A stretch of DNA of 64,000 bases from Acidimicrobium ferrooxidans (GCA_020723485.1 DYIU01000001.1:757850-821849), one strand, 5' to 3'. Positions 35,287 through 64,000 are shown, counted from the stretch's first letter. Notes: a model not told the origin generated them from the sequence alone. Program-made: numbers and translations.

Positions 35287-35289
35287 ATC

Positions 35290-40101: not shown

Positions 40102-40161
40102 GCAGGGCAGTTAAATCGGGGTCAGGCCTGGATTCAAGGCCCCTCGAGTCAGGAGTCCGGA

Positions 40162-44976: not shown

Positions 44977-44986
44977 ACGCAAAATC

Positions 44987-45008
44987 GGGGTCAGGTCACT
45001 TTGTTGCG
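44987..45008. repeat. Solo 22-bp arm of the GGGGTCAGGTCA element family
   Basis: GGGGTCAGGTCACTTTGTTGCG, 11 bp after the ACAD stop; no partner arm within 100 bp. Confidence 0.7.
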
Positions 45009-45047
45009 TTTCCTGGACAGGATCGAAAGGACGGGCGGGAGGACACA

Positions 45048-45821
45048 ATGGATGACGAGCTGTCGACCGAGCTGAGAGAGATGGACGACGAGCTGGACGA
45101 GATGCTCGAGGGCGAGGACCTCGCGCCGCCGCAGGGGGACGACTGGAACCCGGTGGAGAAGGTGATACTCGAGCGGCGCAGCGTGCGTAAATACAAGGAC
45201 AAACAGGTCCCGGAGAGCGTGGTGCGCCGCATACTGGAAGCCGGCCGGTTCGCGCCGTCGGCCGGCAACTGCCAGCCCTGGAAGTTCATAGTCGTCAGAG
45301 ACCCGGAGTTGATAGACGAGATGGAGCGGGACGCCCGCCGCATGTGCAGGCTGTTCCGGTTCTTCATGGACTGGCGGACGAGTCCCCTCGGTTACTGGAT
45401 CCCCTGGCTGCTCGCGCAGACGTACATAAGGCTGCTGCACCACGAGCTGCACCCGATACCGATGGGCGCCGTGTTCGCCATCTCGGAGGGCAACCTGTCC
45501 CTCTTCCACGGAGCGCCGACCGTCGTCTTCATCCTCGAGGACTTCCGCGGTGTCAGCAAGCCGAAAGTGGACATAGGCTGCTGCGGCCAGAACATGGTCC
45601 TTGCGGCACACAGCATGGGCCTGGGGACCTGCTGGGTGGGCACCATCAAGCTGCTCACCTTCACCCCGAAGTGGAGAAGGCGCCTGGGAGTAAAGTTTCC
45701 TTACAAGTTCTGCGAGGCCGTCACCATAGGGTACCCGGTGGGGCACCCGGACGGGATGATACCCAGGGAGACCGTGGAGACAGACTGGTACGAGGACGGA
45801 CGCAAGCGGACCACCTTCTGA
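45048..45821 (+). CDS. Nitroreductase-family flavoprotein with acidic N-terminal extension
   Basis: ATG at 45048 with GGGAGG RBS; nitroreductase motif RRSVRKYKDKQVPESVVRRILEAGRFAPSAGNCQPWKFIVV; N-terminal ~30 aa very acidic. Confidence 0.75.
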   Translation: MDDELSTELREMDDELDEMLEGEDLAPPQGDDWNPVEKVILERRSVRKYKDKQVPESVVRRILEAGRFAPSAGNCQPWKFIVVRDPELIDEMERDARRMCRLFRFFMDWRTSPLGYWIPWLLAQTYIRLLHHELHPIPMGAVFAISEGNLSLFHGAPTVVFILEDFRGVSKPKVDIGCCGQNMVLAAHSMGLGTCWVGTIKLLTFTPKWRRRLGVKFPYKFCEAVTIGYPVGHPDGMIPRETVETDWYEDGRKRTTF

Positions 45822-45837
45822 GCCTTGGAGGCTGTAA

Positions 45838-46167
45838 ATGGGCGAATTCACCCTCTTCGAGATGCTGCGGATACCCACGTACGACAACGAGGACTACGCG
45901 ACCACCGGGCGGGTCACGATCGACCTCGAGAAGTGCAACGGCTGCGGGTTGTGCGCTAAGGTGTGCCCGGGCAAGGCGCTCTATGTCGCAGGCGAGGGGA
46001 AGGACCGGAAGGCGCACATGCACGCTGATTTCCCGCAGTGCATGTCCTGCAACGACTGCGCCGCGATATGCGAGCGCGACGCCATATTCGTGAGCGTCCC
46101 CTACTTCTTCCCGTTCTTCTTCAAGACGCAGGGCAAGGGCGAGTTCTCGCCCCCCCGCAAGTTCTAA
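45838..46167 (+). CDS. 4Fe-4S dicluster ferredoxin-domain protein
   Basis: Two cysteine clusters: CNGCGLCAKVCP and CMSCNDCAAICE. Confidence 0.7.
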   Translation: MGEFTLFEMLRIPTYDNEDYATTGRVTIDLEKCNGCGLCAKVCPGKALYVAGEGKDRKAHMHADFPQCMSCNDCAAICERDAIFVSVPYFFPFFFKTQGKGEFSPPRKF

Positions 46168-46176
46168 CGAAACACA

Positions 46177-46249
46177 GGGTCAGGTCACTTGTTGCATTTC
46201 TTACTCTGAACTTGGCGGAGGATACAAGTGCAACAAGTGACCTGACCCC
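46177..46249. repeat. Full palindromic element of the GGGGTCAGGTCA family (20/21-bp arms, 32-nt loop)
   Basis: Arms GGGTCAGGTCACTTGTTGCA (46177-46196) and TGCAACAAGTGACCTGACCCC (46229-46249) are reverse complements; lies in the 85-bp gap between the ferredoxin and SDR genes. Confidence 0.8.
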
Positions 46250-46267
46250 GATGTGCAGGGAGGTGCA

Positions 46268-47119
46268 ATGGGTTACAGCGACATCCCGCGCACGGCGGTC
46301 ATAACCGGGGCCGGCTCGGGCCTGGGGAGGGCGATGGCGCTTACCCTGGCCCGGGAGGGCTTCAGGGTCGGAGCGGCCGACATCGACCTCGAGAGCGCCC
46401 GGGAGACCGTGGAGATAGTGCGCCGCGCCGGCTCTACAGGTGAGGCGGTCTCCTGCGACGTACGGTCCCACGACGCAGTCCACGCGCTGGCCGACCATTT
46501 CTTCGACGAATGGGGAGAGGTAGGCATAGTGGCGAACAACGCGGGCGTAGCCGACGTCGGCCACGTCGGTGACATCCCCATGCACTGCTGGCAGCGGACT
46601 ATCGAGACCAGCCTCTGGGGAGTCATCTACGGGTGCCACGCGTTCCTCCCCCGCATGAAGGCCAGCGGCGCCGGCCACATCATCAACACTGCTTCGGCCG
46701 CCGGCTTCATGAACATGCCCGAGATGGCGCCCTACAATATCGTCAAGGCGGGGGTCATCTCGCTGTCCGAGACGCTCAGGGTCGAGCTGACCCCGTTCGG
46801 CGTCGGCGTGACCGTCCTGTGCCCCAGCTTCATCGCGACTAACCTCGACAGGACCGCGACTGTCACCGACCCGTGGCAGGGCGAGCTGGTGACCGCCCTC
46901 TTCCAGAACGCGAAGGTCACCCCCGGCCAGGTCGCGGAGGCCACGCTGAAGGCGGTCAAGCGCAACCGCCTCTACGTGGTCCCCCAGTTCACCCCCAGGT
47001 GGGGCTGGAGGTTGAAGAGGTTGAATCCCGGAGCTTTCACCGCCGGCTTCGCCGCGGCCTACAACGCCCCCTTCGGCAAGCGCGTTGCCATGTTCTTCGC
47101 CCGCCGGGGGATGATATAG
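46268..47119 (+). CDS. Short-chain dehydrogenase/reductase (SDR)
   Basis: ATG at 46268; cofactor motif AVITGAGSGLGRAMA; NNAG motif (VANNAGVADVG). Confidence 0.8.
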   Translation: MGYSDIPRTAVITGAGSGLGRAMALTLAREGFRVGAADIDLESARETVEIVRRAGSTGEAVSCDVRSHDAVHALADHFFDEWGEVGIVANNAGVADVGHVGDIPMHCWQRTIETSLWGVIYGCHAFLPRMKASGAGHIINTASAAGFMNMPEMAPYNIVKAGVISLSETLRVELTPFGVGVTVLCPSFIATNLDRTATVTDPWQGELVTALFQNAKVTPGQVAEATLKAVKRNRLYVVPQFTPRWGWRLKRLNPGAFTAGFAAAYNAPFGKRVAMFFARRGMI

Positions 47120-47242
47120 GCCGGGACCTATTGCATTCCCCGGGCGAACTGGGATAAAAAAGACCCGTCCCTTCACAAAGGGATTTCACCCTGACTGGAA
47201 GAAGTTAGGGGTGTCTGACGAGGTCTGCTTGAGGGTGACGCG

Positions 47243-47461
47243 ATGGTGGCGGAAAAGCGCGCTACACGCATGCTCATACTCATCCCGGTTTTTGCGGTGC
47301 TGCTCGCTCTTCTCTTCTCTATGACAGGTCTCAACATGGGCATGACGGTCGCCGAGAGGCCGACGGCTCCCAGGGCCCTGATCCACGCCGCCGTCCTTTT
47401 CTCTGACGCCCTCTACATTACCGCCACCGGCGCCCAGGCGCTCGTGGCCCGTCGACAGTAA
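47243..47461 (+). CDS. Small hypothetical membrane protein (72 aa)
   Basis: ATG preceded by GAGGGTGA; one predicted TM helix (MLILIPVFAVLLALLFSMTGL); no homology recognised. Confidence 0.3.
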   Translation: MVAEKRATRMLILIPVFAVLLALLFSMTGLNMGMTVAERPTAPRALIHAAVLFSDALYITATGAQALVARRQ

Positions 47462-47568
47462 TCGCGGCGGCCCCCCTCAAAACGTGCCGGAACCCATTAC
47501 CTCGCACCGTGTGCGCCCGCGCCGCGACGGCTATTATATAGGCGACCGCAAAGAACAAGGGGGCTGCC

Positions 47569-48348
47569 ATGGACGAGGTGCTGGTCGAGAAGAGCGGGAA
47601 GGTCTGCACGGTCATCATCAACCGGCCCGAGGTGCGCAACTGCGTGAACCGGCCGACCGCCGAGCGGCTCTTCGAGGCGTTCAAGGAGTTCGACTCCGAC
47701 GATTCACTGTGCGCCGCGGTGCTCTGGGGCCAGGGCGGGTACTTCTGTGCCGGGGCTGACCTCAAGGCGCTGGCGAGCGGTGACCTCAACCTGATTAATC
47801 CCCTGAACGAGGACATGAGCCTCTGCGCCCCGATGGGCCCGACGCGGCTGCTCCTCTCAAAGCCGGTCATAGCGGCCGTCGCCGGCTACGCCGTAGCCGG
47901 TGGGATCGAGCTCGCCTGCTGGTGCGACCTCCGAATCGTTGAGGAGGACGCGGTGTTCGGGGTCTTCGACCGCAGGTTCGGCGTCCCCCTCATCGACGGG
48001 GGCACCCAGCGGCTCCCGCGGCTGGTCGGCCTGAGCCGCGCGCTCGACATGATACTGACAGGCCGGGCGGTGGGAGCCCGTGAGGCGCTCGAATTCGGGC
48101 TTGCGAACAGGGTGGTCGGCAAAGGGGAAGCCAGGCTGGAGGCGGAGAAGCTGGCCGCCGAGCTCGCGGAGTTTCCACAGTCGGGGCTGCGGGGCGACCG
48201 GAAAGCGGCCTATCTCGGGTTCGGGCTCGAGCTCGACAGGGCGATGGAACTCGAGTACAGGGTCGGCATCGAGGCTATCACCAGCGGCGAGGCGGTCACG
48301 GGAGCCACCGAGTTCACCGGCGGCAAGGGAAAGCACGGGCAGTTCTGA
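47569..48348 (+). CDS. Enoyl-CoA hydratase/isomerase (crotonase family)
   Basis: Crotonase oxyanion-hole region (FCAGADLKAL) and conserved catalytic stretch (VAGYAVAGGIELACWCDLRI). Confidence 0.85.
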   Translation: MDEVLVEKSGKVCTVIINRPEVRNCVNRPTAERLFEAFKEFDSDDSLCAAVLWGQGGYFCAGADLKALASGDLNLINPLNEDMSLCAPMGPTRLLLSKPVIAAVAGYAVAGGIELACWCDLRIVEEDAVFGVFDRRFGVPLIDGGTQRLPRLVGLSRALDMILTGRAVGAREALEFGLANRVVGKGEARLEAEKLAAELAEFPQSGLRGDRKAAYLGFGLELDRAMELEYRVGIEAITSGEAVTGATEFTGGKGKHGQF

Positions 48349-48457
48349 CTCCCGGCGCGCTGCGTGACAGCACGAAGGAGGCGCGGTGCCCGGGCGTTGC
48401 CTCTGTGGCAAGAGGTCGCTGGCTGGCTTTCCGCCCGGGCCCCACCGCCGAACTTCG

Positions 48458-51211
48458 CTAGTCGGTTCCGCTCACCCCGAGTGACGCGTGCGCAGCCTGC
48501 CGGTACGTCCCGTCCGCGCCGTGCCAGTACATCGCTCTCTCGGCTATTACCGGCGCATCGGAGGTTACCAGGGTGGAGACGCTCCACTCACCGGGCAGCG
48601 TGTCGGCCACGCTGAGGGTCTGCCTGCCTCCCGGCTCGAGGGGCGGCAGAGGCGGGCCGGGCACACTCCCCTCGAGCGTCATGTACGTTATCAGCGGGTT
48701 GGCAACTTCGGTCCCGGCGTTGAAGATTGTGATCCAGGTCTCGAAAGAGCCGAAGGTGCCCGAGCCCGTTGAACCTTCGGCGAAGCACCACTCCACCGCA
48801 CCGGCCGTGGCGCCGATCGACCCGTGCGCCGCCTGCCGGTAGGTCCCGTCAGAACTGTGCCAGTACACTGAGCGCTCCGCGACTATCGGTACGTCTGATG
48901 CCACATGCGTGGAGAAGCTCCACTCACCGGCAATGCCGACGTTGTACGTCTGCCTCGTACCCGGCTCCAGCGGGGGAACTATGTGCCGGGTCGCGGATTC
49001 AATGTTGACGTTTGCCGTCTCGGTCCCCGGGTTCTGAACGGTGATCCAGGTCTCGAACGAGCCGTGGCCGTCCGAGCCCGCGGAGCCCTCCGCGAAGTAC
49101 CAATCCGTCGCCCCGGCTGTGACCCCGATGGAATCGTGCGCCGCCTGCCGGTAAGCCCCGCCGGAACCGTGCCAGTAAACCGCCCTCTCCGCGACGATCG
49201 GTACGGTGGAGCTGACCCGGGTTGAGACGCTCCATTCGCCGGGAACCGTGTCCCCAACGCTGAACGTCTGCCTGGTCCCGGGCTCCAGAGGCGGCACGGC
49301 CGGTCCCGCTACCTCGCCCTCCGGAGTCATGTAAGTCATCACCGGGAGGGCGGTTACGGCTCCCGGATTCTGCAGTGTGATCCAGGTCTCGAACGAGCCA
49401 CGCGAGTCAGAGCCGGTGGAGCCTTCAGCGAAGTACCAGTCGGACGCACCCGCGTTGACCCCGATGGAATCGTGAGCCGCCTCGCGGTAGCCGCCGTCAG
49501 CGCCGTGCCAGTACTGCGCCCTTTCGGCAGCTATCGGCACGTCCGAGGTGACATGGGTGGACACGCTCCACTCATCCGGGACCGTGTCACCCACCGAGTA
49601 CGTTTGCCTGGTCCCCGGCTCCAGGGGCGGGACGGGCGGTCCGGCCACCTCGCCGCCCGGCGTCATGTAGGTGATCACCGCCTGCGCCGACTGGTTCCCC
49701 GGGTTCTGAAGGACAATCCATGTCTCGAAAGACCCACGGGCGTCAGCGCCGGTGGAGCCCTCGGCGAAGTACCAGTTCTGTGCCGTATCCGGGAGCTCGG
49801 GGTTGTTTACGACCGTCTGTGTATCGCTCGCGGTCTTGTAGTAACCGGTCTGCTCGTCCTTTATCTCGGCGATGTTTATCAATAGGACGTCCCCGAAACG
49901 CGGGAACTGGTCCTGCGCCTTGAGGGTCAGCCTGTAGCTGAACTCGCTGGTGGCCGAACCGCCCTCGAGCCGCCCGACCTGCCATCGGACCTTCCCGCCG
50001 TCGATTACGCTCCCCCCGTCCGTGATGCCGGTCACGCTCTCCACGAGGCTCTCGTCGTAGTCGTCCATGACCGCTACCTGGTTCGCGGCGGTCTGGCCGC
50101 GGTTCTCGAAGCTCACGGTGTACTCCAGGGTGTCCCCGGGCGAGATGAGCCCGTCGCCGTCGCGGTCGACGGCCAGCCGCCCGCTTTTCTCGATATTGAA
50201 GTCGACCATCGCGGCGAACCAGAACCAGTCGAAGTAGAAATCGGCGTAATACCCGTCGTCGTCCGTGTTGACGAGGTCGACCGAGTACCTGGCTGTGTCC
50301 GTGGCGACGTGCCCGGCCAGAGGGTAGGTCCTGTCGTCCCAGCTGTTCCCGTCCGTATCCTCGCAGACGTCGTCCTGGTGGAAGTCCGGAGCGTTGCGGT
50401 TGCCCCACTCGTCATAGGAGCGGAAGTCGTAGGACATTGTGTCCGGGGCGTGGCCTTCGGATGTCAGGATGCCCTTGTAGGCGGAGGGGAGTGTCGGCCT
50501 GGTGGTGAAGTCCATGGCGGAACAACTCGCCTGGTGATGCGAGTCCATGATGTTACAGCCGTCGGCGATGCACACCTCGCCCATGGTGATCGACTGGTGA
50601 GTGAAGACTATTACGAGGCTTGCCCCCCACCACGCCTTCAGGGGAAGGAGGCTGAGCGGCCCGGTCTCGACGTGGTACATCCGGTTGGGCTCGTCCCCGA
50701 TGAGGTCGGTGACCTCCGCGCGGTACAGGCGGCGGTGGTTGACGCCGTTCATCATCTCGTAGCCGACCTGGTCGACGTCGCCCCCCTCGTCCCTCCAGCC
50801 GGTCAGGGGCGTGCCCTCGAACGTTATCTCGCCGGACCCGGCCGGCGCCTGGTCCCTTCCCGGTATGGAACGCCCGTCGGTCCCGAAGTTCCCTCCCCAG
50901 TAGAGGAAGGCTCTCTTTATCTCAGCACCTTCCGGCACATGGTTTATCGTGGCGTTACCGGGGGACATGTCGATGTACATCTGGCTCCTGTCCGGGGCCT
51001 CGTGCATCCCGATACCCTCGGAAGTTATCCCCACGTTACCGGCAGCCCTGAGGAAGACGGTGGTGGAGCCGTCCTTACCGACCGACCAGTCAATGGTCTC
51101 GTCGTATGACAGGGCCGACTTGTCCGCCGCAGCCGCCGGCCCGTACGCGCCGATGATGAGACAGGCCAGTATGAAAACCGCCGGCAGGACGATAAGGCGT
51201 CTTCTCAACAT
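48458..51211 (-). CDS. Secreted repeat protein (917 aa), paralogue of the giant protein: unique N-terminal half plus 4 type-A repeat modules
   Basis: ATG at 51211 with AAAGGA RBS; signal peptide (MLRRRLIVLPAVFILACLIIGAYGPAAAA); C-terminal half holds four ~110-aa modules beginning [WC][YF]FAEGS.G....GSFETWI.[VLI].N.G and ending AER[AS].YWH. Confidence 0.8.
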   Translation of the reverse strand: MLRRRLIVLPAVFILACLIIGAYGPAAAADKSALSYDETIDWSVGKDGSTTVFLRAAGNVGITSEGIGMHEAPDRSQMYIDMSPGNATINHVPEGAEIKRAFLYWGGNFGTDGRSIPGRDQAPAGSGEITFEGTPLTGWRDEGGDVDQVGYEMMNGVNHRRLYRAEVTDLIGDEPNRMYHVETGPLSLLPLKAWWGASLVIVFTHQSITMGEVCIADGCNIMDSHHQASCSAMDFTTRPTLPSAYKGILTSEGHAPDTMSYDFRSYDEWGNRNAPDFHQDDVCEDTDGNSWDDRTYPLAGHVATDTARYSVDLVNTDDDGYYADFYFDWFWFAAMVDFNIEKSGRLAVDRDGDGLISPGDTLEYTVSFENRGQTAANQVAVMDDYDESLVESVTGITDGGSVIDGGKVRWQVGRLEGGSATSEFSYRLTLKAQDQFPRFGDVLLINIAEIKDEQTGYYKTASDTQTVVNNPELPDTAQNWYFAEGSTGADARGSFETWIVLQNPGNQSAQAVITYMTPGGEVAGPPVPPLEPGTRQTYSVGDTVPDEWSVSTHVTSDVPIAAERAQYWHGADGGYREAAHDSIGVNAGASDWYFAEGSTGSDSRGSFETWITLQNPGAVTALPVMTYMTPEGEVAGPAVPPLEPGTRQTFSVGDTVPGEWSVSTRVSSTVPIVAERAVYWHGSGGAYRQAAHDSIGVTAGATDWYFAEGSAGSDGHGSFETWITVQNPGTETANVNIESATRHIVPPLEPGTRQTYNVGIAGEWSFSTHVASDVPIVAERSVYWHSSDGTYRQAAHGSIGATAGAVEWCFAEGSTGSGTFGSFETWITIFNAGTEVANPLITYMTLEGSVPGPPLPPLEPGGRQTLSVADTLPGEWSVSTLVTSDAPVIAERAMYWHGADGTYRQAAHASLGVSGTD

Positions 51212-51429
51212 GACAGGTTCCTTTCTCTCCAGCCTTCGCTCATCAGGGCGCTCAGGCCGACCTTTACCACGCGGGGATGTTCTTCACCAGCGCGGGAGCA
51301 CCCGCCGCCATCGCACTCGTCATCATCCGCCAGCGGGTAGCGCGGGAGGGAGCATTCCCCCGACCACGGCCCGGAGTACGCCCTGAGGTACTGCGCTATC
51401 CAGTTCCGCGGGAGTGGTTCGTACTTCAT
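51205..51429 (-). CDS. Small hypothetical Cys-containing protein (74 aa)
   Basis: ATG at 51429 preceded by GAGGAG-type RBS; four cysteines; stop region overlaps the start of the downstream secreted-protein gene. Confidence 0.35.
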   Translation of the reverse strand: MKYEPLPRNWIAQYLRAYSGPWSGECSLPRYPLADDDECDGGGCSRAGEEHPRVVKVGLSALMSEGWRERNLSC

Positions 51430-51645
51430 CGCTTCTCCTCGTGGTTGGCAGGGGTTTCGCGCATTTGCCCTCCTGTGACTCGCCGCCGCCGTAAGAGTGC
51501 ACCTTCCCGTTTCAGGTTATGTAGTGAGTCAATAATGCGTACTAGCAATATAGGTTGGACAGTGGGTTAATTTCAATAGCCGCAGCGGGAATTGTTGATA
51601 AAATACCCTGAATAGGGGATTATCTGACGTTCACTTAATGCAGTA

Positions 51646-51693
51646 TTGACAAAAAACCATCTGAAATATATTATTAATTATCCAATTAATTAA
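51646..51693 (+). promoter_or_regulatory. Canonical sigma70-type promoter with ATTAATTA operator-like motifs upstream of the second TetR gene
   Basis: TTGACA (51646-51651), 17-nt spacer, TATTAT (51669-51674); two ATTAATTA motifs (around 51673-51680 and 51685-51692) overlap the -10 and predicted start; embedded in a ~160-bp AT-rich divergent region. Confidence 0.55.
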
Positions 51694-51702
51694 GGAGTTC
51701 AA

Positions 51703-52326
51703 ATGGCGAGGACGCCGGCAGGCCCGGGACCGGAAGAGAGGAAGAAGCAAATACTGGAGGCCGCAATCGAGGTGTTCGGCCAGAAGGGATACGGCAACGC
51801 GACCGCCGTGGAGATAGGTGAGAAGGCGGGTGTATCATCAGGGACGGTATTCCACTATTTCGGGAACAAGAAGGAGCTGTTCCGCGAGGCTCTGAGGAAC
51901 TGCGCCGTCGATCTTCGGGCGGCGATGGAAAGGGGCAGCCCACCCACCGACGACATAAAGACGTTTCTCAAGATGACGTCGAGGAACTTCTTCGCGTATC
52001 TTCTCGAGAACCCCATGAAGGTGAAGATCCTCTTTCACAGCCCCGAGACCCTCGCGGACCAGGACATCAAGTACGAGTACCGGCGCGTGATGGAAGACCT
52101 CTACCAGTTCGTGTACTCGATGCTCGAAGGTGCCCGGAACAGGGGAGAACTGCCGGAGGACCTCTATATCCAGGGAATCGCCGAGTACATGCTGGGTTTT
52201 AGCTTCTTCACGTCATATCTCTCATTCCTGGGGATAGAGTGGTTCCAGGGCGGCGGGGTATTCCGGTTTACCGACGGCGACTACCTCATCGACTACCTGA
52301 CCAGGCCGCAGGCCGGCCGGGCGTGA
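51703..52326 (+). CDS. TetR-family transcriptional regulator
   Basis: AAGGAG RBS; helix-turn-helix region (KKQILEAAIEVFGQKGYGNATAVEIGEKAGVSSGTVFHYFGNKKELF). Confidence 0.8.
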   Translation: MARTPAGPGPEERKKQILEAAIEVFGQKGYGNATAVEIGEKAGVSSGTVFHYFGNKKELFREALRNCAVDLRAAMERGSPPTDDIKTFLKMTSRNFFAYLLENPMKVKILFHSPETLADQDIKYEYRRVMEDLYQFVYSMLEGARNRGELPEDLYIQGIAEYMLGFSFFTSYLSFLGIEWFQGGGVFRFTDGDYLIDYLTRPQAGRA

Positions 52327-52346
52327 CGCCGTCACCCGAGAAGGAC

Positions 52347-52377
52347 GAAACCCCCGGTACAGATGACCGGGGGTTTC
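52347..52377. terminator. Hairpin with 10-bp GC-rich stem between convergent genes (candidate bidirectional terminator)
   Basis: GAAACCCCCGG-TACAGATGA-CCGGGGGTTTC, immediately after the TetR stop and before the stop of the minus-strand membrane-protein gene. Confidence 0.55.
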
Positions 52378-52398
52378 GAATGAAGGTTCCGGATCGCG

Positions 52399-54391: not shown

Positions 54392-54395
54392 GGAA

Positions 54396-55526: not shown

Positions 55527-55590
55527 AGATACGGGTGAGGGCGGCCGTCGGGCTGACCATGGGGTACAATATCCAGAGCGGCCCAGTGAG

Positions 55591-55998: not shown

Positions 55999-56163
55999 GA
56001 GCAAGGGGTCAGACCACTAACGTCACGTCCCCAGCAGCAGTACTAGCCGCTGACGCCCGTTTTCGGAGTAATGCCGTTGAATTCGCCGGTGCGCAATATG
56101 ACGAAACCGGCCTGACCCCATCTGGTATACTGACGCGAGTGTCACCAAACACGGGAGGGCCCA

Positions 56164-58032
56164 ATGAGAGGCGACTCGATCACGGGCTGCGAGCTCATCT
56201 CGCGGTGCCTCGAGGCGGAGGGCATCCGCTACGTCTTCACGGCACATACCGAGCGCCTGCACCCCCTGCTCGACGCTCTCGAGCAAAAGGGAGACATCAG
56301 GGTGGTGGCGGCCAGAAGCGAGACCGCGGCCACGGTGATGGCCGACGGGTACGTCCGGCGCTCGAGGCGCGTCGCGGCGGTCCTGACCGACGACAACGGC
56401 GCCGCGTTGTCGCAGGTGAGCGGGGTGACCAACGCGTGGGCGGACAAGATCCCCCTGCTGTCGCTGTCACTCAGCGCGGACAGTGAGCCAGACTTCAGCA
56501 AAGGGTATGACCGTTACCGCTTCGACCAGGGTGAGGTCTTCCAGCCGGTCACCCAGTACAGGAGTAAGCTCGAGTCGCTTTCCGAGGCGCAGTCGGTCTT
56601 TGCCGAGGCCGTTGCGCGTTCCACCAGCAACAAGATGGGGCCGTGCCACGTAGACATCCCGGCGCGCCTGCTTGGCGAGACTATCGACGGCAGGTCGGCG
56701 CCTGACCCGGGCGGTTTCGAGGAGCGGAGGATAGAGTCCGTCAGGATGTGCGGTGACGGGGACGCCGTGGAGCGCGCCGCGGCCCTGATCGCCGGTGCCG
56801 AAAGGCCCCTGCTGTTCCTCGGCGGCGGTGTCCATGCCTCGGGCGCCCATGCCGAGGCCGCCGGGCTTGCCAGGGGGCTTGGCATTCCCGTGGCGACCTC
56901 GATGGCCGGCGTCGGGGCGTTCCCGCTGGACGACCCGCTCTGCCTGGGGGGCCCGAGCTATACCTCGGGTGAGGTCTTCCATGCGGCGATCAAGGAAGCG
57001 GACACGGTCGTAGCCGTGGGTGTCAGTTTCGGCGGCCTCGAGGGCTTCGGACTTCCACCGCTGTGGTCGGACGCGATACGGTTCATACACATCGACGTCG
57101 CCCCCCTGCAGATGGGCTTGAACGTACACCCGGAGGTAGCGGTGCTGGGTGACGCGCGGACCGTCCTGACCCAGCTGGCGGAAACGCTCGCGGGTCGTGG
57201 CTTCACGGGCCGGCCGGAGTGGGGCCGCTGGAGCGCCAGACTGGCGGAGCTCAAATCCGGGCGGGCCAGGCGGCTGGAGCGCAACGCCATGAGGCGTTGG
57301 CCCTCCATGCACCAGGGAAGGGCAGCGATGGAGCTCGGCAGGCTCGTGGACCGGGACGACCTGCTGATAGTCATCGACGGCGGCAACACTCCGCTCTACG
57401 CCACCATGTACGCCCCCACCATAAAGCCCGGACAGGCGTTCTTCCCGTTCGGGATGGCCGCCCTCGGCGGGGGAATCCCATACGCGATAGGGGTGCAGCT
57501 CGCGTCGCCCGACAGGCGGGTGCTGCTGGTCACCGGTGACGGTTCTTTCATGTACAACGTCCAGGAGCTGGAGACGATCAAGAGGCTCGGGCTCCCGATA
57601 ATGATCGCCGTGAACAACGACTCCGCCTGGAACATGATAAAGGCCATGCAGGACTCCCTGTTCGCGCGCAACTTCGTGGGCACGTGCCTGCCGGATGTCG
57701 ATTACTCGAAGATAGCCTCCGGGTTCGGCCTCCACGCTGAGAGGGTCTCGCGGCCCGAGGAGATAGCCCCTGCTTACGAGCGGGCGGTGGCTTCGGGCGG
57801 CCCGGCGCTCATCGACGCGGTCACTGACTCCACGAACATCCCGGACAGCCTGCTCAGCTTCTTCCTTGTCGAGTTCGAGGGAGCGTTCGCGGGCATCAGC
57901 CCCACCAAGCTCGCCAGGAGCCTCTGGATGATGAGAGACGTGGGAATCCACAGGATGATGTACATGTCGACTTACATCAGGAAAGCGCTCTTGAAGGTGT
58001 TCATCCCTTCGGGGTGGGGGAGGTCGTCATGA
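56164..58032 (+). CDS. Thiamine-pyrophosphate-dependent enzyme (acetolactate-synthase/2-hydroxyacyl-CoA-lyase superfamily)
   Basis: TPP N-terminal domain with catalytic Glu context (ARSETAATVMADGY); central domain; intact TPP-binding motif GDGSFMYN...NNDSAWN. Confidence 0.8.
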   Translation: MRGDSITGCELISRCLEAEGIRYVFTAHTERLHPLLDALEQKGDIRVVAARSETAATVMADGYVRRSRRVAAVLTDDNGAALSQVSGVTNAWADKIPLLSLSLSADSEPDFSKGYDRYRFDQGEVFQPVTQYRSKLESLSEAQSVFAEAVARSTSNKMGPCHVDIPARLLGETIDGRSAPDPGGFEERRIESVRMCGDGDAVERAAALIAGAERPLLFLGGGVHASGAHAEAAGLARGLGIPVATSMAGVGAFPLDDPLCLGGPSYTSGEVFHAAIKEADTVVAVGVSFGGLEGFGLPPLWSDAIRFIHIDVAPLQMGLNVHPEVAVLGDARTVLTQLAETLAGRGFTGRPEWGRWSARLAELKSGRARRLERNAMRRWPSMHQGRAAMELGRLVDRDDLLIVIDGGNTPLYATMYAPTIKPGQAFFPFGMAALGGGIPYAIGVQLASPDRRVLLVTGDGSFMYNVQELETIKRLGLPIMIAVNNDSAWNMIKAMQDSLFARNFVGTCLPDVDYSKIASGFGLHAERVSRPEEIAPAYERAVASGGPALIDAVTDSTNIPDSLLSFFLVEFEGAFAGISPTKLARSLWMMRDVGIHRMMYMSTYIRKALLKVFIPSGWGRSS

Positions 58033-59570
58033 GGTACCCGAGCGGAGGCGAACTGCTGGTCGAGTGCCTGGTCCGGCAGGGGGTATCCCATGTCTTCTCC
58101 ATCATCGGGGGCCAGATGGGCACCATCTACGACGCTATCGGCAGGTCGGGGGACATAGACGTTGTGACGCCCCGGAGCGAGACGGCGGCCGCGCTCATGG
58201 CGTGCGGCTACACCGCCGCGAGCGGCCGCCCGTGCGTGTCGATGGCGACGGTCGGCGCCGGGGTGGTCTACGAGGTCGCGGGCCTCTCCAAGGCGTGGTT
58301 CGATTACCTGCCGGTGATATCGATCGCGCCGCAGGTCCAGAGCTACCGGGTCAAGCCTCACCAGGAGAGCCTGCAGGCGTGCGAGCAGGACGAGCTCTTC
58401 TACCCGATAACGAAATGGAACTCCATTGTCTTCCACTGGGCGAGGATACCCCAGATGGTGGACAGGGCATTCAGGGAGGCGCTCACTGGAGTGCCCGGGC
58501 CGGTTCACCTCGACATCCCGGTGGACGTCCTGTTCAAGCGAAGCCCGCTCACGGCCGCGCGGGAGCAGAGGTTGATGGTGGAACCGGGCCGGTCGCGCTA
58601 CGAGGGCTCCATCATGGGAGAAGCCGACGCGGCCGGGAGGGTTTTCCGGGCACTGAGCGCGGCGAGAAGGCCGCTTGCCGTCATCGGACAGGGATTCGGC
58701 CGGCCCGGCAGGTTCCCTGCGGCCGCCGCGTCATTGGAGGAGATGGGCGTTCCTGTCGTCACTACCGTGCACAGTGCCGGGGTGATGCCGGATGGGAGCG
58801 CCTGTTACGCGGGCGACCTCGAGTCCTGCGAGGGGCTCGAAGTGGTCGGACAGACCGATCTCGTCCTGCTGGTGGGCATAGACCACGGCTCCCGGGGGTT
58901 CATTGAGCGAATAGGCGCCGCGGTTCCCGTCGTGCAGGTCGAGACGGACCCCACGGCGTTTCTTTCCGGGCGTGATGTGCGCGTCGCCGTCTACGCGGAC
59001 CCCGAGAACGCGCTCGCCGGGATGAAGGAGGCCACGGTGAAGGCCGACGTCAGCTCCTGGCGCGAAGAGTTCGTTGCGGCCGCAAGGGACGCAGCCGACT
59101 CGGCTGCGGCGGAACACCAGGTCGTGGGCACGATTGTCGACATGCTCCGTGAGGCCGGCACCGGGAGGAACGTCATAGTCGCCGATGGAGAGGTCCCTGC
59201 GCTTGCGGCACGGCGGGTACTTACGCGGGTAGAGCACAAGGCCGTCTTCATCATGGACGAGCGTGAGATCCGCGGAGCCGGCCTCCCGTTCGCAATCGGC
59301 GCGCACCTGTCCGAACCGGGCGACAATGTCATCCTCGTGTGCGACAAGAACTCGCTCTTCTACCACGTAAGGGAGCTTCAGCCGGCGGTCTGTGGCGGAA
59401 TGGACATAACTGTGATCTGCGTCGATGACGTCGATGCGGAGACCAACGTCGCGGACACGGGCAGCGTCCTCTCCGGGCTCGGATGCGACGTCAGAAGATG
59501 CGCTGGGGGCCGGAGGGGGGACCTCGCTTCCTGCCTGGCCGGCGTACCCTCCGCGGTCATCCTCCAGTGA
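58029..59570 (+). CDS. TPP-enzyme homologue with degenerate TPP-binding motif
   Basis: ATG at 58029 with GGGGGAGG RBS, overlapping the upstream stop; TPP N-terminal-like domain present (PRSETAAALMACGY) but the position of the GDG...NN motif reads CDKNSLFYHV...VCVDDVD. Confidence 0.7.
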   Translation: MRYPSGGELLVECLVRQGVSHVFSIIGGQMGTIYDAIGRSGDIDVVTPRSETAAALMACGYTAASGRPCVSMATVGAGVVYEVAGLSKAWFDYLPVISIAPQVQSYRVKPHQESLQACEQDELFYPITKWNSIVFHWARIPQMVDRAFREALTGVPGPVHLDIPVDVLFKRSPLTAAREQRLMVEPGRSRYEGSIMGEADAAGRVFRALSAARRPLAVIGQGFGRPGRFPAAAASLEEMGVPVVTTVHSAGVMPDGSACYAGDLESCEGLEVVGQTDLVLLVGIDHGSRGFIERIGAAVPVVQVETDPTAFLSGRDVRVAVYADPENALAGMKEATVKADVSSWREEFVAAARDAADSAAAEHQVVGTIVDMLREAGTGRNVIVADGEVPALAARRVLTRVEHKAVFIMDEREIRGAGLPFAIGAHLSEPGDNVILVCDKNSLFYHVRELQPAVCGGMDITVICVDDVDAETNVADTGSVLSGLGCDVRRCAGGRRGDLASCLAGVPSAVILQ

Positions 59571-59584
59571 CGTGATGCAACACT

Positions 59585-59606
59585 GGGGTCAGGTCATTTT
59601 GTTGCG
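59585..59606. repeat. Solo 22-bp arm of the GGGGTCAGGTCA element family
   Basis: GGGGTCAGGTCATTTTGTTGCG, 15 bp after the stop of the second TPP-enzyme gene. Confidence 0.7.
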
Positions 59607-59686
59607 TTTTCAACTGGCAGGGGGGTGGAAGCGGGCCTTCGTAGGGCGTAATCTGTATCCCACAGCAGCAGATCGAGGAGGTCTTC

Positions 59687-60238
59687 ATGGGGGACGAGAT
59701 GAACGGGACTGCCGGCGAAGCCGGAGCGTCCGGGTGGAGTGACCCCAAGGTCGCTGGCTATCTGATGACGCTGACATATGCGTGCGGCGCCGCCGGAGTG
59801 GCACTCGGTGTCTACGGGTATGGGACGGACGGAGCCGTGAAAGGGCTGCACTACGCCTGCATCCTGATGGTCGGCGTCGTCGGGATCATCTCCGGGATAC
59901 GGCACACCGTCTTCTATCGAAGCGACCTTGCGCGGATGGGCATAAGCGAGGGGAAACCGTTCTTCCAGTGGGAGACCGGCTTCGCCAACCTTGCGCTGGG
60001 CGTCATCGCGGTCATCGCCTTCTTCGCCGGCTGGGGCGGCGGCGCCGAGGTGGCCCTCATACTGGCATATGCGCTCTACCTCGCCCTCGCCCTCTCGCTC
60101 GTGATCTACAGGCGCGTCAGCTCGAAGAGCCTGGACGCGGGCGTGATATTCGCTATGGTCATGTGGGCGGTAACGGTGGGCTTCATGCTCTTCTTCGGTA
60201 TCGCGGCGGCCGTTTCTTCCGAGCTGTCGCTGTTCTGA
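59687..60238 (+). CDS. Hypothetical membrane protein (183 aa)
   Basis: GAGGAGG RBS; four to five predicted TM helices; no family recognised. Confidence 0.6.
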   Translation: MGDEMNGTAGEAGASGWSDPKVAGYLMTLTYACGAAGVALGVYGYGTDGAVKGLHYACILMVGVVGIISGIRHTVFYRSDLARMGISEGKPFFQWETGFANLALGVIAVIAFFAGWGGGAEVALILAYALYLALALSLVIYRRVSSKSLDAGVIFAMVMWAVTVGFMLFFGIAAAVSSELSLF

Positions 60239-60247
60239 CGCAAACAA

Positions 60248-60326
60248 GGGGTCAGGTCACTTTGTTGCATTTTCACGTGTTCGATCCAGTGAAGTGCAGT
60301 AAAACGCAACAAAGTGACCTGACCCC
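60248..60326. repeat. Full palindromic element of the GGGGTCAGGTCA family (22-bp arms, 35-nt loop) between convergent genes
   Basis: Arms GGGGTCAGGTCACTTTGTTGCA (60248-60269) and CGCAACAAAGTGACCTGACCCC (60305-60326); starts 10 bp after the membrane-protein stop and ends 10 bp before the stop of the minus-strand aldo/keto reductase gene. Confidence 0.8.
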
Positions 60327-60335
60327 GATGTTGCG

Positions 60336-61337
60336 CTACTTGCCGATGGGGAGGTAGTGGCGGAACCTGCGCGAGAGCTGGTCGATGCGGTCCATCTCCC
60401 TGTCCGAGAGCTTGAGCTGCATCGAGGCCACGTTCTGCTCGGCCTGGCTGACCTTGGTCGCGCCCGGGATGGCGACGACGGTATCCCCGTAGTAGTTGGT
60501 GAGCCAGCTCAGGGCGACCACAGCCGCGCTCACCCCGTTCGCGTCCGCGATCTCCTCGAGGCCCTCTACGAGCTTCCGGCTGCGCTCCAGCTGGATGCGC
60601 ATCACCTGCCGGCGCCCGAACGGCCTCGTCTTAAGCAGGGACGGGTCCTTGTGGAACTTGCCCGTCAGTATGCCCATCTCAAGGGGCGACCAGGCGATGA
60701 GGGTGATTCCCAGCTCCTTCGCGGCCTTGAGCGTCCCCAGCGTCTCGATGCGCCGGTTGAGGAGGCTTATCTTCACCTGGTTTGACGCGAGCGGAACCCC
60801 GCGCATGGCGAGCGCCGCGTGCGCTTTTCTCATCATGAACCAGGGGAAGTTGCTGACCCCGGGGGCGCGTATCTTGCCCGTTTCCACCAGGTCCGCCATC
60901 GCGTCCATCTGGGCCCGGACAGAGGAGAGCGCGATGGGCTGGTGTATCTGGAACAGGCCGACCGGGTAAGGGGCAAGGCACTCTATGCGCGTGTCGATAT
61001 TCACCCGCAGCGAGTCGGCCGTCCTCATGAACGGGAACCACTTGGTGGCGACCAAGACGTCCGTTTCTGCATATTCCGCGGCCTCCAGCGCGCAGGCGAG
61101 CCTGCGCTCGGAGCGCCCCATGCCGTATGCCTCGGCGGTATCGAACCAGTTCACGCCCCCCGCCTTCGCCGTCTTGACGATTTGGATGGTCTCGTCGTCG
61201 CAGACCTCCTGCCAGACGAGGCCGTCGAAACCCTGCCCCCCGGCGAACTGCCAGGTCCCGAGGCCGATGGGGGATATCTCGATCCCGGTGCGGCCGAGCT
61301 GCCGCCTCGGGGCTCCGTCAGTAGCTACAGCGCTCAT
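60336..61337 (-). CDS. Aldo/keto reductase
   Basis: ATG at 61337; AKR N-terminus (LGRTGIEISPIGLGTWQFAGG...VNWFDTAEAYG) and C-terminal region (QLSRRFRHYLP). Confidence 0.85.
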   Translation of the reverse strand: MSAVATDGAPRRQLGRTGIEISPIGLGTWQFAGGQGFDGLVWQEVCDDETIQIVKTAKAGGVNWFDTAEAYGMGRSERRLACALEAAEYAETDVLVATKWFPFMRTADSLRVNIDTRIECLAPYPVGLFQIHQPIALSSVRAQMDAMADLVETGKIRAPGVSNFPWFMMRKAHAALAMRGVPLASNQVKISLLNRRIETLGTLKAAKELGITLIAWSPLEMGILTGKFHKDPSLLKTRPFGRRQVMRIQLERSRKLVEGLEEIADANGVSAAVVALSWLTNYYGDTVVAIPGATKVSQAEQNVASMQLKLSDREMDRIDQLSRRFRHYLPIGK

Positions 61338-61413
61338 CTAGAACCACCCTTCTTTCGTGCGGGTATTGCCGGACGGATGCAGTTGGGCAGGGGCCCGGTG
61401 CTCCCGCAAGCGG

Positions 61414-61866
61414 TCACCTGATAATGGCGATCACTATGAACCCGATGAGCGGGTTCAACGCTATGCTCGCGGCGCCGAGAGCGATGCCCCAACCCGCCAG
61501 CCTGCTCTCCCCTTCGACGTTGACGAAAGAGCCGATGCGTTCCCTTCGCGGCTCCGGCAGCCCGTTGATGAACCGCCTGGTCCGCACGCCTGTCTGCATC
61601 GCCATGACCGCCAGGAATAGTGCGGCTATCCCCCCGATGGGCAGGAACATGAACCTGCCGCTGTGCAGGGGGTCCGAGGGATTCAGGAGCAGGGGCACCA
61701 TGAATCCCACGAGGTACCCGCCCACCGCGACCGCGAGTGCCGCCAGGCCCCGGTTGAAGCTCGCCCTGCCCGGCCTCCGCGGACCAGGCCTCTCGGAAGT
61801 GCCGCCCTTCTCGTTCAAATCCGCTCCAGGATACTCTCGTGCCACCGATACGTCTCCAGGGGCCAA
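61414..61866 (-). CDS. Hypothetical membrane protein
   Basis: Three predicted TM helices; true start uncertain; no family recognised. Confidence 0.4.
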   Translation of the reverse strand: MAPGDVSVAREYPGADLNEKGGTSERPGPRRPGRASFNRGLAALAVAVGGYLVGFMVPLLLNPSDPLHSGRFMFLPIGGIAALFLAVMAMQTGVRTRRFINGLPEPRRERIGSFVNVEGESRLAGWGIALGAASIALNPLIGFIVIAIIR

Positions 61867-61961
61867 TATCGTAGCACTGTTGATGTCCCCCTGCGCAGAA
61901 AAGGCGAAGGCCGCGCCCCGGCGCTCGTGGCGCGGCCTTCACTGACGCGTTGTCGGAACGC

Positions 61962-63359
61962 CTAGTCGTCCCAGGCGCCGATGGTCTCCTCCCCCGAGGT
62001 GCGGGCGGAAAGAGACCCCGCCTCGGTCCATATGTAAGTGGCGCGCTCGCAGATTATGTTCTGTCCGGGGGTGAGGCTCCTCACCCTGATCGCATACCTG
62101 CCCGGCGTGGTCATGGTGTCCGCCAGGTTGTAGGTGGCTCGCGTGTTGGCAAGGACAGTCCTGTTGATGGTCGCGTCCGGAAGCACGCCCTCACCGTAGT
62201 ACTTCATCTCGATGTTGACGTCCACCGGATTTGGATTCTGCACGCAGGTCCAGGTCTCGTACAGCAGTCCGCAGTTGCCTCCGGGGAGGTACCAGTAGGC
62301 GTGAGACCCGTCAACCCCTATGGAGTCGTGGCCCACCTCGCGCCAGATGCTTCCGGAGCCCCAGTACATCGGTCGCTCGGCGAGGAGCGGGAGGGTGCCC
62401 GACACCTTGATGGACAGGTCGGTGTTGGGCGCCTGCTCGTTGACCTTGATGGTCTCGCGTGTCTGGGGGGCCATCGGGAATGGAGCCATTACGATCTGGC
62501 CGCTCGGCTTCATGTAGGTGATGGTCACCTGGTTCACAGCCGCGTTGGGATTCTGGATGCACAGGAATGTCGTGAACCCCCAGGCCGTCGTTCCCTCGGC
62601 GAGGAAGAAGTCGTTGGCCGGGGTAGTGGCGCCGACCGACTCGTGACCCATCCTGCGGGAGTCCCTGTACATGGACCTTTCGCAGATTATCGGCTGGTTT
62701 CCCAGCACCTGGATGGAGGCGTCCGCCGAGCCTATGTCGTTCGTCATGTTGTAGGACGCGCGAGAATTAGAGGGGACCGTCTTGTTGACGGCGAACGGCC
62801 CGAAACCCTCGATCATGTAAGTGATGATGATGTCTGTAGCTGCCACGTTCGGGTTCTGCACCGTTAGCCAGGTCTCGAAGCCCCATGCGCTGGAGCCCTC
62901 CGGGAGATACCAGATGTTGTTCGGGGCGGTGACGCCTACAGATGAGTGGGTCTCCAGGTTCTGCTCCACTTCGGAGCCCGGCCCACCCATCCAGAACATA
63001 GTCCGATCGACGGCAATAGTCCTGGTCGGGTCGAGGCACTCCACCAGGGTGCTGAAATCCCGCTGGCCAACTGCAGTCAGGGGATTTACGGTCACTCGGC
63101 TCTCGGAAGGCATCGTGAACGGGGGCTGGACGAGCGGGCCCAGGTCCGCGGTCATGTAGGTTATGCGGATCTGGACGTCAACGGTGTTCGGGTTCTCTAT
63201 GTTGATGTAGGTGCCGAAGCCCCAGGCGGTAGTGCCTTCTGCGAGGTACCAGGTCGGGAGCGGGCCCGCCACGGCCGCCCCTCCGCCGAGGAGCATTAGC
63301 GATGCCGCGCCGGCGCACATCATAAGGGCTACCAGAATCGAGATCATCTTCCGTGCCAT
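61962..63359 (-). CDS. Secreted repeat protein (~465 aa) made of signal peptide plus 4 type-B repeat modules
   Basis: ATG at 63359 (MARKMISILVALMMCAGAASLMLLGGGAAVAG); the upstream part of the ORF (to 63470) is translated palindromic element; four ~110-aa modules beginning WYL[AP]EG[TS].AWGF.T[YW][IL]...NPN. Confidence 0.75.
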   Translation of the reverse strand: MARKMISILVALMMCAGAASLMLLGGGAAVAGPLPTWYLAEGTTAWGFGTYINIENPNTVDVQIRITYMTADLGPLVQPPFTMPSESRVTVNPLTAVGQRDFSTLVECLDPTRTIAVDRTMFWMGGPGSEVEQNLETHSSVGVTAPNNIWYLPEGSSAWGFETWLTVQNPNVAATDIIITYMIEGFGPFAVNKTVPSNSRASYNMTNDIGSADASIQVLGNQPIICERSMYRDSRRMGHESVGATTPANDFFLAEGTTAWGFTTFLCIQNPNAAVNQVTITYMKPSGQIVMAPFPMAPQTRETIKVNEQAPNTDLSIKVSGTLPLLAERPMYWGSGSIWREVGHDSIGVDGSHAYWYLPGGNCGLLYETWTCVQNPNPVDVNIEMKYYGEGVLPDATINRTVLANTRATYNLADTMTTPGRYAIRVRSLTPGQNIICERATYIWTEAGSLSARTSGEETIGAWDD

Positions 63360-63440
63360 CACACCCACCTCCGTAAGGTTGCCTGCTTCAAGAGTACTCC
63401 TGCGGGCAATGACGGTCGAGAGCGCAGTTCCCTTACATGC

Positions 63441-63529
63441 GCACAATGGGGTCAGGTCATTTTGTTGCATTCAAGGAGTCTGGGATGAGTATGGTCAAAA
63501 TGCAACAAAATGACCTGACCCCATTGTGC
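63441..63529. repeat. Full palindromic element of the GGGGTCAGGTCA family with extended arms (~28 bp, 31-nt loop)
   Basis: Core arms GGGGTCAGGTCATTTTGTTGCA (63448-63469) and TGCAACAAAATGACCTGACCCC (63501-63522); the palindrome extends outward to GCACAATGGGG...CCCCATTGTGC; lies between two minus-strand genes. Confidence 0.8.
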
Positions 63530-63995: not shown

Positions 63996-64000
63996 CTCTT

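Follow-up and report, generated by a model that had tools for sequence, protein, structure and literature searches.

Intergenic repeats placed after stop codons in a Geothermincolia-related actinobacterium resemble the end-repeats of TIRYT transposases

TIRYT genes encode RAYT-like Y1/HUH transposases which are flanked by terminal inverted repeats (TIRs) and not by repetitive extragenic palindromic (REP) sequences (Di Nocera et al. 2013, PMC3733652). The motif GGGGWSAS recurs in many of these inverted repeats; self-complementarity is seen in some, and some make up genomic families that comprise singles, dimers and clusters (PMC3733652). The TIRYT proteins constitute subclass 2.1 of TnpA_REP and carry a C-terminal helix-turn-helix (HTH) domain, and their repeat motif has been restated as GGGG[AT][CG]A[CG] (Quentin et al. 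2018, PMC6006769). The roles proposed for REPs include mRNA stabilisation and termination (PMC3733652), and PMC6006769 cites Liang et al. 2015 for an effect on translation of REPs near a stop codon. Here we describe a family of short intergenic repeats in a 64,000-nt stretch of DNA from Acidimicrobium ferrooxidans (GCA_020723485.1, DYIU01000001.1:757850-821849; hereafter the window), whose units carry a common tag, GGGGTCAG, and are preferentially found directly after stop codons. We consider these elements to be probably REP/REPIN-like, non-autonomous end-repeats that derive from a TIRYT-type Y1/HUH transposase, in a Geothermincolia-related actinobacterium.

A first-pass annotation of the window had listed five copies of an intergenic palindromic element, three full and two solo, between positions 44987 and 63529. 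A search of both strands with its 22-mer GGGGTCAGGTCAYTTTGTTGCA, allowing up to 3 mismatches, returned six matches (44987+, 59585+, 60248+, 60305-60326-, 63448+ and 63501-63522-), compared to an expectation of 0.00 in 100 dinucleotide-preserving shuffles. The copy at 46177-46249 was missed by this search because of a one-T deletion in both arms, and was recovered by means of the 13-mer core and an inverted-repeat scan of the window. The five listed copies exist and far exceed chance. Our own codon-score gene calls (51 genes, 7.2% of the window intergenic) place each of them within intergenic DNA, in agreement with the annotation. The inverted arms were confirmed as well, and are longer than the 20-22 bp (around a 31-35-nt loop) given before. 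The inverted-repeat scan revealed arms of 31 nt with 100% complementarity at 63441-63471 / 63499-63529, of 35 nt with 86% complementarity at 60239-60273 / 60301-60335, and of 23 nt with 96% complementarity at 46177-46199 / 46226-46248, with 26-27 nt between the extended arms.

Alignment of the window and related copies indicated that the palindromes, which had been taken as the family, are real but are not the unit. The repeated unit is a single polar arm of ~38 nt, and solos, inverted pairs and tandems are its arrangements. In the main subfamily (SF1) this arm reads aaYGCAACAyyGGGGTCAGGTCACTTTGTTGCRTTTYC: a GCAACA/TGTTGC mini-palindrome surrounds the core GGGGTCAGGTCAC, the tag GGGGTCAG(GTCAC) lies inside it, and RTTTYC follows. 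An nhmmer profile detected 44 SF1 units in the window, a Geothermincolia metagenome-assembled genome (MAG) and sediment metagenomes, arranged as solos, as inward-facing pairs with the tags outermost, or as direct tandems. The span of the pairs from GGGG to CCCC is 65-82 bp, mostly 77-78, and the tandem periods are 37 (L016), about 40 (L007) and about 52 (L028). Private variants are common to both arms of a pair: the T deletion of 46177/46249, TCATTTTG together with GCACAAT in 63441/63529, and palindromic yy linkers. Indeed, arms differ at 4.7 per 36 positions within a pair versus 7.6 between pairs (permutation p = 1e-4), and complementarity of the pairs reaches 9-11 nt beyond GGGG on the outer side. 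Pair interiors are unrelated between copies except for the RTTTYC ends, in agreement with the earlier description of a non-conserved loop. Because spacers are never common to two loci, pairs seem not to move as whole units. At one locus an SF3 unit is directly adjoined by an SF1 unit (L023:1476-1541), and at another the outer flank GGTGTTGCAC is duplicated in tandem (L020:1144-1170), suggesting that units insert beside, or recombine at, existing units.

The annotation had proposed either a miniature transposable element with inverted repeats (MITE) or a REP-like family. Classical MITEs would be cut-and-paste deletion derivatives of DDE-transposase insertion sequences with GGGG... terminal inverted repeats, and Tn3-like ends start with GGGG. 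Small, intergenic inverted repeats with GGGG outermost fit this origin, as does their presence or absence at orthologous sites (see below). However, a scan of 11 pairs for target-site duplications found no flanking direct repeat of at least 3 bp at offsets 0-19, so that the 3-9 bp duplication expected of such elements is missing. Moreover, the interiors are unrelated between copies, complementarity continues 9-11 nt outside the GGGG, solos and tandems are common, and similarity to any plasmid or phage record was not found. A MITE origin is very improbable, while the REP-like half of the proposal, a dispersed family, holds.

The only sequence common to all subfamilies is GGGGTCAG, which is invariant in SF1 and outermost in every pair. 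Around this tag a mini-stem of 5-9 bp is kept by complementarity, whereas its sequence varies by subfamily. SF1 combines the core GGGGTCAGGTCAC with GCAACA / TGTTGC, and an L028 variant of SF1 has GGGGTCAGGTGAC with TGCAAAA / TTTTGCA. The other combinations are GGGGTCAGACACCyTGA with TTCATG / CATGAA in SF2, GGGGTCAGGCACCGTG with TCACAT / ATGTGA in SF2b, GGGGTCAGAyCTGATTTC with CTAAT / ATTAG in SF3, GGGGTCAGACCCCATT with AGTTAA / TTAACT in SF4, GGGGTCACGTCA with GTAATAA / TTATTAC in variant A and GGGGTCATACCAC with ACGAA / TTCGT in variant B. In a 30-sequence alignment all 7 pairs of the 7-bp stem were changed on both sides, and 90% of cells were paired versus 43% in shuffles, a level reached by 0 of 500 shuffles; this pairing figure is biased upward because the alignment register was set sequence by sequence and leans towards structure. 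Folded as single-stranded DNA (ssDNA), the SF1 consensus mini-hairpin gave -8.0 kcal/mol (z -4.6). In the Geothermincolia MAG, a 486-nt spacer between ECH and NMO genes (L031:13285-13772) holds a mixed-subfamily cluster, consisting of a decayed SF1-like unit and an SF2 inverted pair.

The family extends beyond the range from 44987 to 63529, which holds the listed copies and not the full set. A variant A pair, GTAATAAcctGGGGTCACGTCAtattTTATTAC and its inverted partner, is located at 35197-35296, with a mini-stem altered on both sides relative to SF1; it occupies the entire spacer between convergent genes for an aldehyde:ferredoxin oxidoreductase and a metallo-beta-lactamase-fold protein. A variant B pair at 19561-19677, also delimited as 19556-19677 (ACGAAtGGGGTCATACCACTTTCGT ... 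ACGAAAGTGGTCTGACCCC), has its arms 79 nt apart, the left one inside the final codons of a called cyclase open reading frame and an addB-like gene next to it. Just upstream of this cyclase gene, whose 3' end enters the element, a small open reading frame overlapped by a PIN-domain gene (18273-18939) resembles a VapBC-type toxin-antitoxin pair. A degenerate variant C pair between DUF4440 and TPP-enzyme genes (56005-56119; GGGGTCAGACCAC ... GGCCTGACCCC, the right arm also given as CCGGCCTGACCCC) lies within the earlier range and is not among the 22-mer matches. Altogether, GGGGTCA sites occur in 9 intergenic regions of the window, corresponding to 8 clear element loci and a possible relic at 40118. 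The latter, GGGGTCAGGCCTGGATTCAAGGCCCC at 40118-40170, follows a thiolase stop, and the orthologous spacer of L028 contains the compact palindrome GGGTCAGGCtccgGCCTGACCC; both may belong to the same superfamily, as minimal or relic members. Five GGGGTCA-bearing loci were found in the 20.7 kb of L031, and extrapolation from the window and L031 densities suggests hundreds of copies per genome. The copies avoid coding DNA: no window copy of the 22-mer family is coding, and over 201 kb of window and related loci, 12% of which is non-coding, 74 GGGGTCA sites are non-coding versus 39 coding (p = 4e-40).

A conserved asymmetric core with strict polarity relative to the upstream gene is also what would be expected of duplex-DNA sites for a protein recognising GGGGTCAG, such as a nucleoid protein, a polar transcription roadblock or the regulator of a regulon operator. 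The fairly constant pair spacing (65-82 bp, mostly 77-78) and the C-terminal HTH domain of TIRYT proteins (PMC6006769) agree with such sites. They give no reason, however, for a mini-stem that changes on both sides between subfamilies; the flanking genes are functionally unrelated, and presence or absence at orthologous sites together with assembly breaks indicates a multi-copy mobile repeat. We regard duplex-DNA sites as decidedly unlikely. Comparison with the operator consensuses parS, Rex, DasR, LexA and CRP gave no convincing match.

The tag GGGGTCAG fits the TIRYT motif GGGG[AT][CG]A[CG] exactly. TIRYT protein queries from the published supplement were used to retrieve Y1_Tnp loci, whose end-repeats were compared with the units described here. 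A Y1_Tnp gene of Geobacter pickeringii is flanked on both sides by aattacGGGGACACCATACTTAATT in inverted orientation, the repeats (GGGGACACC...) having the same polarity as SF1, and a related metagenomic gene (L039) is flanked by AATTCAGGGGACACCATACTTA. In a Nitrospirae MAG (L040/L041), gaacaaaaaaGGGGACAGGCTACTTTT stands on both sides of a Y1_Tnp gene and is identical to SF1 at 13/17 positions from GGGG on. This repeat, also given as GGGGACAGGCTACTTTT, has the polarity of SF1 and an outward extension similar to the GCAACAyy of SF1, and an extra solo copy is present in an intergenic spacer ~2.4 kb off (L041:13047). The Dau_2153 repeats GGGGTTTCATTGTG (GGGGTTTC) are without the WSAS part. All TIRYT loci checked have inward-pointing units with the GGGG on the outside, the same polarity as in the window pairs.

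A TIRYT origin accounts for the tag, for a hairpin-like unit with co-varying stems, for the lack of target duplications and for the mixed arrangements. It also accounts for gain, loss and replacement at orthologous sites and for the near-identical core. The solos would then be single ends, and the pairs would be gene-less end pairs of TIRYT terminal inverted repeats. A TIRYT-type enzyme would recognise the tag-bearing hairpin on ssDNA, and would cut and rejoin it without target duplication. Copies would persist where they are harmless or useful, that is in sense orientation 0-10 nt past stops.

The distribution of the units was analyzed in genome and metagenome collections and in relatives. 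The exact 20-mer occurs in 1 of 185,579 GTDB species representatives, namely on 4 contigs of a Candidatus Geothermincolia MAG (JBBQKJ01); two more GTDB matches lack the flanking consensus and were taken as chance. In JGI metagenomes it was found on ~19 short sediment contigs, in addition to one chance match. Hence, the motif is not confined to the window. Many of the sediment contigs start or stop at a unit, as expected of a multi-copy repeat that breaks assemblies. The best named relatives of the window nitroreductase are Geothermincolia, Anoxymicrobiaceae and Actinomycetota MAGs. Scans of viral contigs for SF1 and SF2 gave zero matches, BLAST of a full copy against plasmid and phage records gave no match, and a literature search for the core sequence on both strands returned only unrelated primer or eukaryotic matches.

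Four syntenic relatives (L028, L031, L033 and L035; protein identity 68-77%) allowed the comparison of orthologous intergenic regions that the annotation had suggested. In the convergent spacer between the aldehyde:ferredoxin oxidoreductase and metallo-beta-lactamase-fold genes, the variant A pair of the window corresponds to an SF1-like pair in L028; L031 has another upstream gene and no unit, and L033 a spacer of 2 nt. Between the acyl-CoA dehydrogenase and nitroreductase genes the SF1 solo of the window is matched by a decayed copy of another subfamily in L028 and a GGGGTCAGGCAC unit in L035, the spacers of L031 and L033 being empty. The spacer between the ferredoxin (Fer4) and SDR genes holds an inverted pair in the window, two tandem units in L028, one solo in L031, a perfect palindrome (46 nt) in L033 that belongs to another subfamily, and a GC hairpin outside the family in L035. 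The pair between the DUF6790 and aldo/keto reductase genes (97-nt spacer) is absent from L031 (35-nt spacer, empty). Orthologous spacers are filled, empty or otherwise filled, which means that copies are acquired, disappear and are replaced by others. Across relatives, stop-adjacent sites are used again and again, the same ones each time, and the 13-nt core is nearly identical across genomes whose proteins are only ~76% identical.

About half of the 44 SF1 units, and most solos, have their 5' end within ~10 nt of a same-strand stop codon of a gene with high GC content at third codon positions. All three stop codons occur at the junctions, for example TGA|CGCAAACAA, TAA|CGCAACATT and TAG|CGCAACATC. 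The annotation had placed the two solo arms of the window just after stops; here, the 22-mer begins 11 and 15 nt past them and the full unit 0-5 nt past. Both solos and the three full pairs consist of SF1 units. The solo at 44976..45013 (+; aACGCAAAATC GGGGTCAGGTCAC TTTGTTGCG TTTCC; nhmmer E 2.5e-13) begins at the stop (TGA) of the gene for acyl-CoA dehydrogenase (43846-44976), and the nitroreductase start follows 34 nt on. The second solo, 59575..59612 (+), lies 4 nt past the TGA stop of a TPP-enzyme gene (58014-59570), 74 nt before the DUF6790 gene. In the pair with the T deletion, the left unit (46177..46201, +; CACTTGTTGC) stands 9 nt past the TAA stop of the ferredoxin gene (45838-46167), and the right unit (46226..46254, -) ends 13 nt before the start of the SDR gene (46268). 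Where genes converge, each arm adjoins the stop of its own gene (60238/60336, 35196/35290 and L010). At the first of these sites, the left unit 60238..60275 (+) touches the TGA stop of the DUF6790 gene (59687-60238), and the right unit 60300..60336 (-) touches the TAG stop of the minus-strand gene for the aldo/keto reductase (60336-61337). The perfect 31-nt-arm pair consists of a left unit at 63441..63471 (+), with the variant GCACAAT...TCATTTTG in both arms, and a right unit at 63496..63529 (-), 6 nt past the TAG stop of a YkuD-domain gene (63534-63998, minus strand).

The distance from a unit to the next start codon ranges from 13 to ~170 nt. Exceptions to this placement are L025 and L026, which are antisense, and L018, which lies in a divergent spacer. 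Ordinary GC-rich hairpins of the window begin 20-30 nt past stops; as a counterexample, the plain hairpin of L035 lies 2 nt past the Fer4 stop. A conventional two-way terminator-like hairpin, GAAACCCCCGG-n9-CCGGGGGTTTC, is located between convergent genes at 52345-52385, ~20 nt from each stop, showing that ordinary GC-rich hairpins outside the family are in use in this genome as well. Sense placement after stops may reflect either selection for or against RNA effects, or strand-biased insertion plus loss of spare spacer DNA. A SECIS-like element (AGGUCA in the loop after a stop) was rejected because TAA, TAG and TGA stops are used alike and the frames end there. Pairing of the core with the Shine-Dalgarno/anti-Shine-Dalgarno sequence would involve only AGGU (AGGUGA in L028), is absent from SF2 and was rejected as well.

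A solo followed by a pair brackets one or two small genes twice in the window (44987...46249 and 59585...60326), which is reminiscent of attC-like integron sites bounding cassettes. ACGCAAC and GTTGCGT match the core sites RYYYAAC and GTTRRRY at 6/7 positions. Similarly, GG and GC lie 10 nt apart in SF1 and TTGCA follows, as in sigma-54 promoters (GG-N10-GC, TTGCA). Against integron sites, an integrase or recombinase gene was not found nearby, the flanks are syntenic core metabolism conserved in relatives, and the units are not in cassette arrays. Against sigma-54 promoters, the -24 hexamer agrees with TGGCAC at GG only, the spacing is 1 nt shorter in the 46177 pair and the motif is absent from the other subfamilies. 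The placement of units after stops, in both orientations, speaks against both, and either is hardly credible. More generally, no transposase or integrase gene was seen in the window, and the genes flanking the elements have unrelated metabolic and housekeeping functions.

RNA folding of the full copies gave -50.7, -53.5 and -57.8/-61.2 kcal/mol (z -8.2 to -11.3), in accordance with the long stem per full copy that had been predicted. In contrast, the folds of the solos were no more stable than those of shuffles (z -0.37, +0.15). Transcribed pairs would thus form perfect hairpins of 23-35 bp at the 3' end of the upstream cistron, which might act as decay barriers, processing sites or terminators without a U-tract; such roles as decay barrier, processing site and terminator have been proposed for REPs in E. 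coli. The elements are not intrinsic (Rho-independent) terminators of the canonical type, as the annotation had stated: a T-run beyond the outer ends is missing from the three full pairs, loops are 26-27 nt (79 nt in variant B), and a consensus scan for sigma-70 promoters and terminators found nothing at the elements. Canonical terminators were at chance level in the scanned region. Rfam 15 had no gathering-score match in the window, and its E-value mode returned only generic miRNA-precursor hairpins far below threshold.

Do the units serve the host at the RNA level only? If they were merely host-selected 3'-end hairpins (terminators without a U-tract, stabilisers or RNase III sites) with no dedicated transposase, spread and uniformity would have to come about through selection and gene conversion. 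Several observations agree with this explanation: units lie in sense orientation 0-10 nt past stops, both arms touch both stops between convergent genes, pairs give very stable RNA hairpins, arms within a pair co-vary and canonical terminators are at chance level. Furthermore, the Fer4-SDR site has some hairpin in 5/5 genomes, including the non-family GC hairpin of L035. However, solos fold like shuffles, yet their 13-nt core is kept across genomes with ~76% protein identity, and structure alone leaves unexplained why subfamilies with different stems have the tag in common. Tandems, the antisense solos of L025 and L026 and the match to TIRYT end-repeats are left unexplained, too. As the sole explanation, host-selected RNA elements therefore appear rather unlikely to us, although an RNA role is compatible with a TIRYT origin as a secondary, co-opted one.

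A further possibility is a domesticated, genome-wide 3'-end "punctuation" signal in Geothermincolia that is read as RNA or ssDNA by a dedicated protein. This protein, possibly a domesticated Y1/HUH-HTH protein, would set the fate of the upstream cistron by termination-coupled mRNA decay or stabilisation, or by polar transcription arrest. Purifying selection on the 13-nt core would then serve a host function rather than transposition. We consider domestication of this kind unlikely.

Several points weigh against the origin from TIRYT end-repeats that we favour. What ties the family to TIRYT is a degenerate motif of 8 nt, a single 13/17 resemblance and a common polarity; mobilisation by a Y1 transposase is inferred, as is any RNA-level role. 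A tblastn search with 7 RAYT/TIRYT proteins as queries detected no Y1_Tnp gene, either in the window (64 kb) or in the related Geothermincolia loci (~140 kb). Protein searches for a Geothermincolia TIRYT gave matches in Desulforudis-like and Geobacter-like clades only, and none of the names was from Geothermincolia or Actinomycetota. Genuine TIRYT repeats have an enclosing complementarity of only 4-5 bp, and the pair spacers of the present family differ at every locus. The mini-hairpins have little stability as free ssDNA (-0.3 to -10.9 kcal/mol), several being no better than shuffles, and complementarity of at least 6 nt is found at 9/34 non-SF1 sites compared to 3/38 GGGGTCA sites in coding regions, which is borderline (Fisher p = 0.056). 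A transposase model alone does not predict the tight stop-codon adjacency. Finally, sense orientation is not separable from replication direction, because the window shows positive GC skew and a majority of + strand genes over its whole length.

Several other features were noticed in the window. A ~60-nt leader (...GGTGTCTGACGAGGTyTGCTTGAGGGTGA..., 47170-47242) is located directly 5' of a gene for a 71-74-aa hydrophobic protein (47243-47461) without a Pfam match. The same leader is found at L028:12242-12314, L031:12085-12157 and L033:11373-11445, the other intergenic DNA of these four genomes being unalignable. It could be a regulatory RNA leader, with no Rfam match at gathering score. The divergent intergenic region at 51212-51702 is unusually long (491 nt) and AT-rich, and holds the best sigma-70-like matches of the scanned 20 kb, namely TTGACA-17-TATTAT at 51646-51674 and further ones at 51576-51547 and 51595-51623. 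A 1963-aa protein with nine IPT/TIG domains and a DUF5719 region is encoded at 8086-13977, and a second DUF5719-related protein at 61962-63359, adjoining the gene for the YkuD L,D-transpeptidase. Both have the look of proteins of the cell envelope.

Our results extend the little studied TIRYT/GGGGWSAS class of repeats to an uncultured class of Actinomycetota. The data set combines several subfamilies in which a common tag goes with co-varying stems, orthologous sites that hold a unit, hold none or hold a different one, and an unusually tight polar placement after stops. It thereby bears on what TIRYT Y1/HUH proteins recognise, and on the question of selfish passengers versus co-opted 3'-end signals. 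In addition, the repeats break metagenome assemblies of this lineage and are to be masked or modelled in intergenic annotation.

Compared with described systems, the family resembles the REP/BIME/REPIN elements of Proteobacteria, which are associated with RAYT, in several respects. These are extragenic partial palindromes of 20-40 nt, found alone, in dimers (head-to-head or tail-to-tail) and in tandems. They are concentrated downstream of genes and in the spacers of convergent or co-directional neighbours, lack target duplications, and their doublets can fold as one long hairpin. In contrast, the tag here is GGGGTCAG and not GTAG or CGTC. It lies inside a mini-stem, whereas the REP tag is unpaired and stands at the base of a long stem rich in GC, and the hairpin of a single unit is weak. 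Dimers with the tag outside have variable spacers here, whereas those of REP families are usually conserved (PMC3733652). The Correia/NEMIS elements, which are MITEs of Neisseria, are likewise small intergenic inverted repeats with long RNA hairpins and presence/absence polymorphism. In Correia elements the interior is conserved and the target duplication is TA, whereas the present family has neither a conserved interior nor a duplication, and its single arms stand as units. DNA uptake sequences (DUS/USS) have a short conserved core, which is found downstream of genes either alone or in inverted pairs whose loops vary. The units described here are longer (~38 nt) and far rarer than one per kb, none is in window coding sequence, and the loops are ~27 nt.

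The remaining comparison is with TIRtrons, the TIRYT-associated TIRs. The pairs of the present family differ from these in that they enclose an unrelated spacer of 15-35 nt and not a gene, and a TIRYT gene was not seen alongside the units. The mini-stem is longer (6-9 bp) and co-varying, the units are tightly stop-adjacent, and the host belongs to an actinobacterial class, Actinobacteria not being mentioned in the main text of PMC3733652 or PMC6006769. In both, however, GGGG[AT][CG]A[CG] stands at the outer end of inverted repeats with the units pointing inward; both occur as singles, dimers and clusters, and some published TIRs are self-complementary. Because the GGGGTCAG tag matches TIRYT end-repeats, we regard the elements as a new family of a known kind of repeat and not as a new kind of system.

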